Assembly: GCA_000146045.2 (NCBI GenBank)
Contig: BK006943.2
Span: forward strand, 640,001-704,000
Source of the DNA: TPA_inf: Saccharomyces
Taxonomy: Eukaryota
Reading direction: 5' to 3'
DNA length: 64,000 nt
How positions within the stretch are numbered: the first letter of the stretch is position 1; each line of letters starts with the position of its first letter. Shown in pieces: positions 18,917 through 25,019 of the stretch. A model generated the notes under the pieces. That model was not told where the DNA came from. It saw only the letters and a program-made list of their open reading frames with translations, and searched no databases. The translations under genes were made by a program, and so were the position numbers.

Positions 18917-21900
18917 TTATATTCTAGTGTTTCTTTTTTTCGTAACACTATAGATAGCTCTTGATTGCAAACCATGAGCGAACGATAATATTATAGGCCA
19001 AATTGGCGCATCACCCAATATTTGAACACCCAAATATAAACATTTGGAGGATAGACTTGCCGCTACAATTAGTTGAATTGTCTCATTTATATCGGTATTC
19101 GGGTCCATGGCCCTTTGTGCTTGTTCTTCATTTAGTGCTGACAAATCTAGGGCATCCTTGTCCTGCCATCTTAAGAAATCAGTGTACGATTTCAACACAT
19201 CACACTCCTTCGGTATCAAGTTCATTTGTAATCTTCTCAAAATCCTTTCTGCTTTTAGCCATAAGACACGGTCCGAAAAATCCAATAATGCTGAGTTAGG
19301 GTTGTTGGCATTGTACCCGCGTGCCCAATCCTCTACACATTTCATGTATTCCGAAATCACTAATACTGCAGTGAACATACATGTGGTCGCAAATACAGGA
19401 GTATTGAAAATTCTGCGCTTGCCCTGTTTAATGTACGTAAAAAATGAAGTCCACGCATCCACCATATTCAGTGCATACTCGGTAGCTTCCCTCAATGAAC
19501 CCATGTCATAGCAAACTTCCTCCAAAGCTTTATTCATATTGGACCAATCTTTCAACCAGATTTTCTCAATAACATGTGCCAGGTCCAAACACCGTCTCAT
19601 TTTGGCAAACAAATATACCGGAATTATTAACCTCATTGCTGGATTGGCGTTTATTGTTGACATGCTATTCTCGGTAGGTGTCAAGATGCCACCATTTTTC
19701 AAATAAAGGTTTTCCCAGTATTTTAACATTGTATCGATCCGTTGTCTGGAAGTCATCTTCCACTCAATATCGTCCAACTCAATGTTATTGCTATTGGTGT
19801 TGTTATTACTGATCCTTGCGTTATTTCTTTCAATAAGTATTTTCTCATGGATAGATATCAACAATGATAGACATGTACTTAACGAAACCCTAGCATTTCC
19901 GTAAAAAAAACTATCGCCTGTAGAAAGAAACCTCAAACAATTTTCATATGCCTCGTTACCATTAGACAATTCAATCAACGAAAATTTCGAATCTAACGTT
20001 ATTTTGTATTGACATAATAGGTCCGACCATTCATCGGAATTTCGGCACTGATATAATTCTTCTTTATAGCATGGAACACCACATTTTAAATCGACTGAAT
20101 GAAAACAGCAATCAGCACCTACCAGTGAAGAAAATAAGTTAGATATAAGTAATACCGCATGGCAAGTCCTGATACGTGACTGCGCCAATACAAAATATTG
20201 GTAGTTTTTGTTCATTTGATTCGGCGCGTTGTATTGCTCTCTTATTTTTGAAAACATATGAGGACTGTTTTCATATTCCATAATATGATCACTCTCAATA
20301 GGCGGCTGGCATAGGGACTCTAGGGGCAAATTTAAACGAGAGGCCTTCAAGAGACGAATAATAGTCGTCAACTGACCATGCATCCCCTTGATCACGGCTG
20401 TATTTTTATTGAAAATACAGTAGAACGTTAGCAATACTAATGTCTGTATAACCCATAACTCTGTCGTCTCCGGGTTTTTCTCACTAACTTTCAAGCTTTT
20501 CCTAATTTGGGTGCTAGCTGCATTAGCTAACACTTTTGCATGCGTCGAATGAAACCCATACAATGCTCCGACCATGGAGATAGATAATAACAAGGGATAA
20601 CTGTCCATATTAGGTATGATAGAAGGAAGATGAATAAATGAAAAAAATGGATGGAATTCTTCCTTATAGTAAGTCACATAATCGTTCAATTGACTAGTTG
20701 TGGGGAAGGCTCCTGAATCGATATTATTGTCGGCTAGCATCATACTCCTTAGCTCATTGGTAAAAAGCACTTGAGATACTGAAGGGACAGAAAACGGAGA
20801 TAACAAATCCGAAGGAGTAAGAACAGGCAGCTGTTTCTGTGTTGCATTAGAATCAGTTTCGCCGGGGAAAGACAAAGTGAGAACATCGTCGTTCACATGA
20901 GAATTATTTTGCTCTGTCCCGTTTAATACCTTGGAAATATCCAATTGCCTTGAGCTGAAAAAATTGGATAGATCGTAGTCCATCATGACGCTATCACGAC
21001 GCCTCTTATGAGAACTATGGGAAATAGGGTCAGAATAGGAAGGCTCCTTTAGTTGGTTTTGTGGTGTACTTGGTAAATCTGTGCTTCCATTCAAACTCAA
21101 GTTTAAGCGAGGTGATAAAGAAGCTTTTTCATGATTTAATGAGGTAGCAGAATGGTTTGGAGGTGACTTGTTTGGTATAGATGACCTTGATGAAGGTGGA
21201 GAATAAATAAACCCAATGTCATTGAAATGATTGAAGTTGATCTTGAAGGTAGATTTTGGATCAGAGTTGTTAATAAACTCTGATAACCACTTGTCATCTA
21301 TGGCAGCAGGATCGATATTACTATCCTTATCATTGGGCTCCATTGATGGTTCCAGTAAATTATTTGTGCCTGGATTGAAATTGATCGTGGAAGAGGAATC
21401 TGAAACAGTTGTTGGTGGGTTTTTAGGAGATAGTGACATAAGCGGCTGCTCATTGCTCATTTGCCTATAAGTTTGATTTGCCAAATTACTGTAACTATTA
21501 GAAGCCGTAGTAGAATTAGACGGTATAGTATTCGGGAAGCTTGACGGAAGGTTAAATTCAGAAACTGTCGGTTTATCATGACTGAAGCAGCCCAAATCAA
21601 ATGGCGAATGGTGGCTAGACATGTATCCTCCCGCACCTGCATGTGCAGAGTTCATTGTCAAAAGATCGGTTAAAGATGGACCGCTACTTAAGAGATACAC
21701 TCCAGGTGTAGCAACTGTACTTCCATTGTTGCTGTTCACTATGGTACTAGAGGTGGAATTTTGCTGTTGTTGTTGTTGTTGTTGTTGCTGTCCGGAGGGG
21801 TCATTGTTAAATAGATTTAAGTTAAACTTGATAGCTTGCGGTGGTTCGTCCAGGGTTAACGGAGGTAAATCCAATTCTGACACGCTTTCCATGAGCTGCT

Positions 21901-23059
21901 TCGCGGTCATTTGTGGAGTAGAAAAGCCGACTTGATGCGGAGCGTCTTCAACGAGCTCGAAATTGGTAATTGAATGGTGGGGGCTATTGCTACTAGACAT
22001 GTAAGTCATTGCACTGGATGCAGAGAAAGACGCATGTCTTTTCGTCTTATGCATGGAAGAGGGAGTGTTCGCCCTGTCGATAACAGCATCGCTTGATGCA
22101 GAGTGAACTGGCACGCCTTTCGTGCTGAACTTGAACTCTCGAAATCCTAGGGAGCCTGCCTTACTAGGAGGAGTTTTCTCTCGCTTATCGTTCATTACTG
22201 GGGCCGAGACGGGAAGTTCTACATTATTTGATTTGGCCAAGGCAACCACGGCCTCTTTCAATTCTTCAGATGTCTTACCAGCAAGGTTCTTCGGGGTGGG
22301 TAGAATAGTCTCTTTATTTCCGGCTATTTTAATGATATGAAGGTCGGTTGGATCATCCGCCGCCACGGAATGGCGCCGCTTGGAGGCAAAAGAAGAAGTC
22401 GAATTTGGTGCTGGCGTCATTCGCCGTGGATCCCCCGTACCTACAAGAGCAGCATGAAGTTTTTGCTGATGCCTGAGCACTAAATCTCTACGAGCAAAAC
22501 ACCTACCGCAAAAGATACAAAGATACGGTTTCTCACGGGTATGCGAATGCTGATGTCTCTTCAAATGCTCCTGCCTGACAAAACCCCTAGTGCATGTGGG
22601 ACACAAGAACGGTCTTGGCTTATCAGTCTTAATAATTCGAGATTTTTTAGGAATGGGCAGAATACCTTGACCAGCGGGCTTAGCGAAATTAGATTGATTA
22701 CCGTTCACAAACATACTTGGCTCCGGCACTAATAAAAAATCTTTATCTGCCCTATCTATTCTAGTATCGCCAATGTCTTTTAGCTTCTTCGCCCTAAAGT
22801 TTCTTTTTGGTGCAAGAGTCTTCGAGAAAAACGTGTGTTGAGAGAGGCAATGTTTAACGAAGAAAAAAAACTCTATGGAAATCCAAGAAGTCCTTGTTTC
22901 TTTGTTTTCGTTTCTAATATATGCAGGGTCAAGCGGGAAAAAGAAAGACAGACGGAAAAGTGCCCAGCAACACGGAACAAAATTGTCCAGATTTATTCGA
23001 GCGGCCGCGGTTAGTATGCATAATGCAGGCGCCCCTCGTCCAAATGCGAACGGTTCCAT
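18917..23059 (-). CDS. RSF2: C2H2 zinc-finger transcription factor with polyQ and Asn/Ser-rich regions, 1380 aa from ATG 23059
   Basis: Two C2H2 fingers: FLCPTCTRGFVRQEHLKRHQHSH and YLCIFCGRCFARRDLVLRHQQKLH. The Q11 tract and C-terminal fungal transcription-factor region fit RSF2. The track ORF starts on TTG 21 nt upstream. Confidence 0.85.
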   Translation of the reverse strand: MEPFAFGRGAPALCILTAAARINLDNFVPCCWALFRLSFFFPLDPAYIRNENKETRTSWISIEFFFFVKHCLSQHTFFSKTLAPKRNFRAKKLKDIGDTRIDRADKDFLLVPEPSMFVNGNQSNFAKPAGQGILPIPKKSRIIKTDKPRPFLCPTCTRGFVRQEHLKRHQHSHTREKPYLCIFCGRCFARRDLVLRHQQKLHAALVGTGDPRRMTPAPNSTSSFASKRRHSVAADDPTDLHIIKIAGNKETILPTPKNLAGKTSEELKEAVVALAKSNNVELPVSAPVMNDKREKTPPSKAGSLGFREFKFSTKGVPVHSASSDAVIDRANTPSSMHKTKRHASFSASSAMTYMSSSNSPHHSITNFELVEDAPHQVGFSTPQMTAKQLMESVSELDLPPLTLDEPPQAIKFNLNLFNNDPSGQQQQQQQQQQNSTSSTIVNSNNGSTVATPGVYLLSSGPSLTDLLTMNSAHAGAGGYMSSHHSPFDLGCFSHDKPTVSEFNLPSSFPNTIPSNSTTASNSYSNLANQTYRQMSNEQPLMSLSPKNPPTTVSDSSSTINFNPGTNNLLEPSMEPNDKDSNIDPAAIDDKWLSEFINNSDPKSTFKINFNHFNDIGFIYSPPSSRSSIPNKSPPNHSATSLNHEKASLSPRLNLSLNGSTDLPSTPQNQLKEPSYSDPISHSSHKRRRDSVMMDYDLSNFFSSRQLDISKVLNGTEQNNSHVNDDVLTLSFPGETDSNATQKQLPVLTPSDLLSPFSVPSVSQVLFTNELRSMMLADNNIDSGAFPTTSQLNDYVTYYKEEFHPFFSFIHLPSIIPNMDSYPLLLSISMVGALYGFHSTHAKVLANAASTQIRKSLKVSEKNPETTELWVIQTLVLLTFYCIFNKNTAVIKGMHGQLTTIIRLLKASRLNLPLESLCQPPIESDHIMEYENSPHMFSKIREQYNAPNQMNKNYQYFVLAQSRIRTCHAVLLISNLFSSLVGADCCFHSVDLKCGVPCYKEELYQCRNSDEWSDLLCQYKITLDSKFSLIELSNGNEAYENCLRFLSTGDSFFYGNARVSLSTCLSLLISIHEKILIERNNARISNNNTNSNNIELDDIEWKMTSRQRIDTMLKYWENLYLKNGGILTPTENSMSTINANPAMRLIIPVYLFAKMRRCLDLAHVIEKIWLKDWSNMNKALEEVCYDMGSLREATEYALNMVDAWTSFFTYIKQGKRRIFNTPVFATTCMFTAVLVISEYMKCVEDWARGYNANNPNSALLDFSDRVLWLKAERILRRLQMNLIPKECDVLKSYTDFLRWQDKDALDLSALNEEQAQRAMDPNTDINETIQLIVAASLSSKCLYLGVQILGDAPIWPIILSFAHGLQSRAIYSVTKKRNTRI
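21761..21793 (-). repeat. (CAA)n/CAG trinucleotide repeat encoding Q11 inside RSF2
   Basis: The + strand reads ttgctg(ttg)8ttgctg, which translates on the minus strand to eleven glutamines. Confidence 0.85.
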
Positions 23060-23280: not shown

Positions 23281-23744
23281 GGTCGTTACTACCGTTGATT
23301 CAAAAACAGTTGCTTCTTCCATATATTGTAGCACGAACAACTATGGCCGGCCGCAAATTGCGACAATTACACCTAACGCAGCATTAAGGTCGCAGGAAAT
23401 GTTATCTGCCGAGCTGTTTATCTCTGTTTTCCAAGATTTTTTCAACCAGCCCATGAGTCTGCTGTTGGCGGCAACCCAGTTACAGATAATGGTGCATGTG
23501 ATAAGCTTCGTACCACTATTCGTAGTTTGTTACATCTTGTAAGCCAGTATATATATTTGTTAGATTGTGCCCTAACGTTCCAGTAATTGAAGGGTAACCG
23601 AGGTTTCCGTGGAAAAAAACCGTGTATAAGCAAGAGGTTCCGAGCGAAAAAAAAAAGTATAAAAGAAAGCACAGGCAATGAGATTTGTTTTTCGCTTTTC
23701 CTTCTTATTTGTTAATTCTATTTTTGAAGTTTCCTTCCGAAAAA

Positions 23745-23945
23745 AAGTAACTTTGTCCTAAAGTACTAATCCACCGCATTAGACAGTACGAAGATCGAGC
23801 TATTTATTTGAACACTCGGTCTTATTCGTGATAAGCGTAATGTGGAGAGATCAATTTCCGGGTCATTTATAAGAACTCGAGTGGATTGCTAGTTGTTTTG
23901 ATTAGCTGAATGAGACTCGAGTGTCAGAAGATGACTATATTTTTT
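23745..23945. ncRNA. Candidate small structured ncRNA in the RSF2-EFM3 intergenic region, possibly the H/ACA snoRNA snR3; strand not resolved
   Basis: A TATA element (gtataaaag, about 23657) lies roughly 90 bp upstream and a long T tract (23941-23960) follows. Two copies of the self-complementary octamer ACTCGAGT (about 23873-23881 and 23915-23923) can form an 8-bp stem around a 33-nt loop. The minus-strand reading ends ...GGACAAAG, an ACA box 3 nt from a plausible 3' end. No ORF is present. The snR3 assignment is only an unverified recollection that an H/ACA snoRNA maps near here. Confidence 0.35.
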
Positions 23946-23999
23946 TTCTTTTTTTTTTTAGTTATGTTTTATTTTTGAACTTGTACTTGCACATGTATC

Positions 24000-25019
24000 T
24001 TATTGTTTCGTGATCTTGTAGATCCGTATGGGTGCAATCAAAGGTTTGAATTGCAGGGCTTTCATCGCGCGGATCTCGTTGTTTGCGTCGTACTCTGTGC
24101 TGGTGACTATGGTACATTTTAGCCCGAGTTTATTGCACTCTTGAGAAAACAGTTGGACAGTGGATTCGCTTCTAATTGTCGCGGATAGGAGACACAGTTT
24201 GCATCGGTCTAAAGCAAGACATTCGGCCAGACACTCGCATAGATCAGGAAGGATAGTTGGGTCATACGTAACATCTGCCCCCACTACTAAATCTATATCC
24301 TCAGGAACTCTATCGCTGCCCCACCATAATCTTTGCAACTTGATGTCTGGTTCGTTCTCACGCACTTCATTGTTCAATTCAAAATTTCTTTTCAGCTGCG
24401 TCTCAACGAGATTCGAATCACCATCCGTGACGTACATCTTATTTACGAACTCGTGATACTTTTGTAAAATGACGAGACTCACTATGCCTGTGCCAGCGCC
24501 GACCTCAAGAACATTTAATTTTTTCTTGCCATCGTCTTGTCCTTGTACCGGTGCCAACTCTTGTAAGGGCTTATGAATAAGGAAATCACCCATGTATAAG
24601 GCAGCTTCCCATGTCCTGAAACCTGTAGTACTGGCCGCACTGATCAAATTCGGTGTTTCCTCAATTTTGATCTTTACGTCCTCGTCAAACCTGTACCTCA
24701 CGACGTCTTTCATCATCGGGTCTGGCTTGCCTGTGCTTAATAGTTTTATGTACTTCTCATAGAGATAATCATATATCTCTATCTCGTCTTCGCCATCGTT
24801 GACAATTGTGAATGCCTTCGCGAAAATCCATTCGTGGTCTAAGAGCATCTTGACTATGGTTTTGCAATAATATGCATTCGTCTTTTGCACAAGTTCCATC
24901 TCACAAACAAATCTCGATGCATGCAGGACATCGTTAGATTTGCTTGTTTCCAACTCTTCTAGCAAGTATTTTCCAGGGCACCGCTGATGTAATCTATCGT
25001 AGAATAGATCTTCATTCAT
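24000..25019 (-). CDS. EFM3: Class I SAM-dependent protein-lysine methyltransferase (eEF2 lysine methyltransferase), 339 aa from ATG 25019
   Basis: Motif I LEVGAGTG and an FAM86-like N-terminal region. The track ORF starts on TTG 24 nt upstream. Confidence 0.82.
   Translation of the reverse strand: MNEDLFYDRLHQRCPGKYLLEELETSKSNDVLHASRFVCEMELVQKTNAYYCKTIVKMLLDHEWIFAKAFTIVNDGEDEIEIYDYLYEKYIKLLSTGKPDPMMKDVVRYRFDEDVKIKIEETPNLISAASTTGFRTWEAALYMGDFLIHKPLQELAPVQGQDDGKKKLNVLEVGAGTGIVSLVILQKYHEFVNKMYVTDGDSNLVETQLKRNFELNNEVRENEPDIKLQRLWWGSDRVPEDIDLVVGADVTYDPTILPDLCECLAECLALDRCKLCLLSATIRSESTVQLFSQECNKLGLKCTIVTSTEYDANNEIRAMKALQFKPLIAPIRIYKITKQ

Follow-up and report, generated by a model that had tools for sequence, protein, structure and literature searches.

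The locus between RSF2 and EFM3

In the 64-kb window, by which we mean the whole stretch of DNA that was analysed, an RSF2-like gene and EFM3 are both encoded on the minus strand, and the interval between them holds a 194-nt RNA gene on the plus strand. The RSF2-like gene was recognized from its domain content and the EFM3 protein is identical to NP_012663.2 of S. cerevisiae S288C. Both neighbours are thus the ones named in the original prediction, which was made from the letters alone and had suggested a structured RNA in this interval. The main features of the locus are as follows:

18917-23059, minus strand: RSF2-like gene with C2H2 and Fungal_trans domains, ATG at 23059
23569-23597, plus strand: upstream blocks GCCCTAA (23569-75) and AGGGTAA (23591-97), both invariant in five Saccharomyces species
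23647-23665, plus strand: putative core promoter of SNR3, judged from conservation, with an A10 tract (23647-56) followed by TATAAAAG (23658-65)
23749-23942, plus strand: SNR3 gene, mature snR3 H/ACA snoRNA, 194 nt (Rfam RF01251)
23940-23959, plus strand: T8-C-T11 tract (T8 at 23940-47, T11 at 23949-59), beginning in the last 3 nt of the RNA
24000-25019, minus strand: EFM3, with a Methyltransf_16 domain

SNR3 is transcribed divergently from RSF2, whose ATG is 689 bp away from the 5' end of snR3, and convergently with EFM3, from which it is separated by 57 bp. The list of open reading frames contains none of at least 60 aa inside 23749-23942, in agreement with the earlier statement that the segment lacks coding potential. 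A 78-aa reading frame with a TTG start lies further upstream on the minus strand (23442-23678), where it overlaps the conserved blocks of the snR3 promoter; it has no Pfam match and is probably spurious rather than a gene.

Identity and strand of the RNA gene

A comparison of the 64-kb window with Rfam 15 produced a single match above the gathering score, to RF01251 (snR3), at positions 23749-23942 of the plus strand (236.6 bits, E = 6e-47). The match covers model positions 1-193 of 193 without truncation, and its score is to be compared with a gathering score of 40 bits. An S. cerevisiae assembly contains a locus with an snR3 match identical to that of the window. The suggestion of an H/ACA snoRNA, and of snR3 in particular, is thereby confirmed, and the Rfam scan of both strands that had been proposed as a check matched the snR3 model on the plus strand. 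The 5' and 3' ends of the mature RNA were taken from the Rfam boundaries and the literature, the DNA itself giving neither ends nor expression; snR3 has been detected on a Northern blot, for which a probe is in use (PMC13015370).

The strand was another matter, as the original prediction had placed the RNA on the minus strand, ending in ...GGACAAAG with an ACA box 3 nt from a 3' end near position 23748. The motif does exist (CTTTGTCC, 23751-58), and the z-score of the minimum free energy (MFE) fold is similar for the two strands, at -2.4 for the minus strand and -2.6, itself a modest value, for the plus strand. However, on the plus strand these nucleotides form the tip of the leader hairpin, of which the motif is the antisense, and the true box is an AUA at 23937-39. 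The minus-strand fold is 10 kcal/mol weaker than the plus-strand fold, and a permissive rescan of positions 23400-24200 on both strands (E <= 10) gave no snoRNA-like match on the minus strand, as against 236.6 bits on the plus strand. Furthermore, complementarity to the known 25S targets is found in the plus-strand RNA only, and a transcript of the plus strand has the TATA box ahead of it and the T tract behind it. We consider a minus-strand snoRNA to have practically no chance of being the correct reading, and take the gene to be the plus-strand SNR3.

The same permissive search also returned alignments to the Plasmodium RNase_P and IMES-5 models at 23613-23744, with 15-27 bits against gathering scores of 96-100 (27 and 23 bits for Plasmodium RNase_P, whose gathering score is 100). 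We rejected these as chance alignments to the A/T-rich, low-complexity promoter.

SNR3 is already known and annotated, and it has long been characterised by experiment, with established targets and mechanism. What this article shows, from identity and strand through fold, boxes and guide-target complementarity to synteny and conservation, belongs to a familiar gene, and the discovery value is small. What the case illustrates is that reading the letters can locate a snoRNA gene from hints of a promoter, a terminator and a stem, whereas the strand and box assignments made in this way are not trustworthy without a covariance-model scan.

Anatomy and fold of snR3

From its 5' end, snR3 consists of a leader hairpin, hairpin 1, the H box, hairpin 2, the AUA box and a 3-nt tail. 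Nucleotides of the snoRNA are numbered as the window coordinate minus 23748, and the elements, all on the plus strand, are:

23749-23764, plus strand: 5' leader hairpin AACUUUGUCCUAAAGU, nt 1-16 (Rfam consensus, MFE, alifold)
23774-23844, plus strand: hairpin 1, nt 26-96, with lower stem CCG/UGG, pseudouridylation pocket, upper stem and loop (Rfam structure)
23778-23787, plus strand: 5' strand of the hairpin-1 pocket, AUUAGACAGU, nt 30-39, pairing with 25S 2131-2140 over 10 bp (rRNA complementarity)
23830-23841, plus strand: 3' strand of the hairpin-1 pocket, GAUAAGCGUAAU, nt 82-93, of which the first 3 nt, GAU, pair with 25S 2126-2128 (rRNA complementarity)
23848-23853, plus strand: H box AGAUCA, nt 100-105, the sole match to ANANNA in the hinge
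23861-23936, plus strand: hairpin 2, nt 113-188, with lower stem GGUCAUUU/AGAUGACU, pocket, upper stem and apical stem-loop (Rfam and MFE agree)
23869-23874, plus strand: 5' strand of the hairpin-2 pocket, AUAAGA, pairing with 25S 2135-2140 (3+2 bp) and 2266-2270 (5 bp)
23875-23882, plus strand: first ACTCGAGT octamer, the 5' arm of the hairpin-2 upper stem that closes the pocket (Rfam, MFE)
23915-23922, plus strand: second ACTCGAGT octamer, the 3' arm of the same upper stem (Rfam, MFE)
23923-23928, plus strand: 3' strand of the hairpin-2 pocket, GUCAGA, pairing with 25S 2127-2132 (6 bp) and 2260-2263 (4 bp)
23937-23939, plus strand: 3' box AUA, a variant of ACA, nt 189-191 (Rfam alignment, motif search)
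23940-23942, plus strand: UUU tail, nt 192-194, to the end of the model (Rfam model)

The two-hairpin architecture of hairpin, hinge, hairpin and tail is common to the Rfam structure, the MFE fold and the alifold consensus. A folding test for this arrangement had been proposed along with the original prediction, and it yielded two hairpins with an ANANNA box in the hinge and, at positions -6 to -4 from the 3' end of snR3, a 3' box in the variant form AUA.

The twin ACTCGAGT octamers are present in two copies as described, with a spacer of 32 nt (40 nt from start to start) instead of the 34 nt given. The 8-bp stem that they were thought to form is real: as RNA, it is the upper stem of hairpin 2, ACUCGAGU/ACUCGAGU, which is followed by the apical stem-loop, and since each arm is its own reverse complement, the two cannot differ in sequence. 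The second short hairpin fared less well. Its motifs GTACT and AGTAC were located at 23763 and 23785, but they do not pair with each other in the Rfam structure, the MFE fold or the alifold consensus.

The 64-kb window contains exactly two copies of the octamer ACTCGAGT, against an expectation of about 0.8, and perfect 8-bp inverted repeats with spacers of 3-60 nt begin at 140 positions in the window and are thus not unusual. The case for snR3 is carried by the covariance-model match, the complementarity to rRNA and the orthologs, because the structural hints alone do not exceed what chance would produce.

Guide strands and their targets in 25S rRNA

The pairings were computed with 25S rDNA of the S. 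cerevisiae type from two metagenome contigs that were found via a conserved 25S segment; both carry the 25S 5' end and a D2 segment of the S. cerevisiae type. Positions were counted from the 5' end, and this numbering placed the expected base at 25 of the 25 modified positions in the table of PMC5699541.

In hairpin 1, the pocket pairs with 10 + 3 bp around U2129: all ten nucleotides of the 5' strand match 2131-2140 and the GAU of the 3' strand matches 2126-2128, so that U2129-G2130, at the top of the pocket, remain without a partner. The pocket of hairpin 2 forms 6 + 3(+2) bp around U2133, with GUCAGA matching 2127-2132 at six of six positions, and the same pocket can also form 4 + 5 bp around U2264, with 2260-2263 on one side and 2266-2270 on the other. 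The distance from the start of the pocket to the box is 14 nt for hairpin 2 and the AUA box, and a slightly long 17-18 nt for hairpin 1 and the H box; the textbook distance for H/ACA pockets is 14-16 nt.

These computed pairings match the published target assignments exactly. In the table of PMC5699541, snR3 is assigned to 25S Psi2129, Psi2133 and Psi2264, and a passage of PMC5824354 that cites Schattner 2004 attributes 2129 to hairpin 1 and both 2133 and 2264 to hairpin 2. PMC5824354 also names a homolog in S. pombe. The 3-bp arm of snR3 is mentioned in PMC6800473. In nanopore data, furthermore, the signals at Psi2129, Psi2133 and Psi2264 disappear once snR3 is deleted (bioRxiv 10.1101/2020.07.06.189969).

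[quoted passage not shown] Hairpin 1 directs the formation of Psi2129, and the single pocket of hairpin 2 that of both Psi2133 and Psi2264 (in helix 69). Each H/ACA hairpin assembles with Cbf5, Nop10, Nhp2 and Gar1, and Cbf5 isomerises the target uridine to pseudouridine; by analogy, the target uridines of snR3 are expected to be converted by Cbf5 within such an RNP.

Taken together, we estimate a probability of about 0.98 that the segment is SNR3, encoding the H/ACA snoRNA snR3 that guides the formation of 25S Psi2129, Psi2133 and Psi2264, on the plus strand between RSF2 and EFM3. The points on the other side are minor, namely the AUA box, the 17-18 nt spacing in hairpin 1 and the z-score of -2.6, and nothing substantial speaks against it.

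Orthologs and selection on the RNA helices

Ortholog loci were reached via homologs of EFM3, and the species names used here are assigned from the source names of these homologs. Eight genomes were added to the window in this way: an S. paradoxus-like genome (EFM3 81% identical), S. mikatae, S. kudriavzevii, S. eubayanus/pastorianus, Vanderwaltozyma polyspora, Torulaspora globosa, Kazachstania africana and Lachancea fermentati. An snR3 match lies directly downstream of EFM3, and convergent with it, in nine of nine loci (92-237 bits; 92-235 bits in the eight Saccharomycetaceae genomes other than the window). In V. polyspora (L129 7060-10290) the other flank is occupied by an opposite-strand Zn_clus gene and not by an RSF2-like C2H2 gene, while snR3 still adjoins EFM3, and the conserved linkage is therefore that of EFM3 with snR3 and not that of RSF2 with snR3.

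A side observation concerns the S. paradoxus-like sequences. An EFM3 allele whose product is only 81% identical to the window protein (L125, Logan SRR31591876, and P0002) is labelled Saccharomyces cerevisiae in NCBI. The gene order at the L125 locus is as in the window and its snR3 match scores 231.8 bits. This segment looks like an introgressed piece of chromosome or one from a sister species (S. paradoxus-like).

Invariant in all nine species are UAGACAGUACG in the hairpin-1 pocket, CGUGAUA, UAAGAACUC in the 5' strand of hairpin 2 and GAGUGUCAG in its 3' strand, and CGUGAUA(A)GCG is conserved around the 3' strand of the hairpin-1 pocket. Likewise, A100, A102 and A105 of the H box do not vary among the nine species. 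The 3' box is AUA in eight of the nine orthologs; the exception is L. fermentati (L132 8245-8453, minus strand), where ACA stands in its place.

The stems have changed in a manner that preserves pairing. For 14 of the 42 pairs in the alifold consensus, one sequence or more carries a change at both partners, and in hairpin 1 six pairs of the upper stem were changed on both sides in the orthologs. Compensatory changes, from U-A to C-G or G-C at several positions, are seen in the lower stem of hairpin 2 in V. polyspora, T. globosa, L. fermentati and K. africana; these were read from the cmscan alignments, as the pocket lengths differ by 1 nt, a difference with which MAFFT plus alifold did not recover this stem. 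In K. africana (L131 6941-7173) and L. fermentati, 48-53 nt replace the 14-nt apical loop region of hairpin 1, and for the 19-nt apical stem-loop that the model shows in hairpin 2, L. fermentati has only 3 nt.

The upper stem of hairpin 2 bears on the possibility that the twin ACTCGAGT palindromes are elements of the DNA between RSF2 and EFM3, for instance a site for a dimeric transcription factor or a cruciform, that act independently of any RNA. A related fallback offered with the original prediction was that they form an unexplained element of the RSF2 promoter. Each octamer is indeed perfectly palindromic, the two copies recur unchanged in V. polyspora and the five Saccharomyces species, and there are just two copies in 64 kb. 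However, the octamers lie inside the transcribed snoRNA, where they coincide exactly with the two arms of a helix in the model, and they are located about 820 bp from the RSF2 ATG, downstream of EFM3. Moreover, the arms are ACUCUUGU/ACCAGAGU in T. globosa and ACUCGAAU/AUUCGAGU in L. fermentati. In both species they have lost palindromy and mutual identity and yet still pair, and this variation with retained pairing is the signature of selection on an RNA helix. A function at the DNA level is accordingly most improbable, and we interpret the octamers as the arms of the hairpin-2 upper stem of snR3.

Probable promoter and 3' flank

The TATA-like motif noted earlier near position 23657 corresponds to TATAAAAG at 23658-65, preceded by the A10 tract, and starts 91 nt upstream of the 5' end of snR3. 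The block formed by the A-tract and the TATA box, AAAAAAA..TATAAAAGAA.GCA (23647-72), is invariant in the five Saccharomyces species, and the 30 nt before the 5' end of snR3 are also common to all five. Transcription of SNR3 would thus begin downstream of a conserved A-tract/TATA promoter.

Further upstream, GCCCTAA resembles a Tbf1 site and AGGGTAA a Reb1 site, which we take to be putative sites from their agreement with the consensus motifs. Yeast snoRNA promoters typically contain Tbf1 and Reb1 sites; nothing that connects snR3 with Tbf1 came up in a literature search.

On the other side of the gene, the long T tract of the original prediction is the T8-C-T11 tract, which is likely to be part of the region of 3'-end formation. 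The downstream flank has kept its T-richness in the five species but not its exact sequence, and it is in this T-rich flank that the 3' end of snR3 may be formed. UCUUG and GUAG motifs of the Nab3/Nrd1 type at 24014-21 are consensus matches only. We infer the function of the promoter, the factor sites and the termination signals from such features.

The 5' leader as a possible accessory rRNA-binding element

The invariance of the leader across the Saccharomycetaceae is the only loose end of the analysis. The sequence AACUUUGUCC[U/A]AAAGU (nt 1-16, 23749-64) is the same in nine species except at nt 11, and there is no covariation between the arms of the leader although the orthologs diverge down to matches of 92 bits. 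An identical leader without covariation suggests selection on the sequence, and not only on the hairpin.

One hypothesis is that the leader pairs with rRNA itself. Nucleotides 3-10, CUUUGUCC (23751-58), are complementary to 25S 2115-2122, GGACAAGG, over 8 bp including one G.U, and this site is followed, after 3 nt, by the weak 3-bp arm of the duplex between hairpin 1 and the Psi2129 region. The duplex has a predicted energy of -12.5 kcal/mol, which was equalled on the adjacent 30 nt by 25 of 5000 shuffled leaders. Within 25S 1-2322 it is the third-best site for the leader, the two others being slightly better, and covariation between leader and 25S is uninformative, as both partners are invariant. 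The pairing is a post hoc observation, and a shallow literature search found no report of pairing between the snR3 leader and rRNA.

If true, the leader would be an accessory rRNA-binding element that pairs with 25S 2115-2122 and stabilises the docking of the Psi2129 substrate, an effect that additional pairing has in certain box C/D snoRNAs. We think it rather unlikely that the leader acts in this way, and propose the complementarity as a lead and not as a finding.

Comparison with known systems

The leader recalls box C/D snoRNAs with extra pre-rRNA pairing next to the guide (PMC3116282). The likeness consists in a conserved segment outside the guide that is complementary to rRNA beside the target duplex; box C/D snoRNAs are, however, another class of snoRNA, and the pairing in snR3 is one of computed complementarity alone.

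With the canonical box H/ACA snoRNAs, snR3 shares the two pocket hairpins and the ANANNA box in the hinge; its 3' trinucleotide box is likewise placed 3 nt before the 3' end, and 14 nt separate this box from a pocket. In contrast to them, snR3 has AUA rather than ACA in eight of the nine Saccharomycetaceae orthologs, it carries an extra and invariant 5' leader hairpin of 16 nt, a single pocket serves two target sites, and one guide arm comprises just 3 bp. Compared with snR3 itself (RF01251), the model match, the architecture, the boxes, the guides, the targets and the position between RSF2 and EFM3 are all the same; there is no difference, and the two are the same gene.
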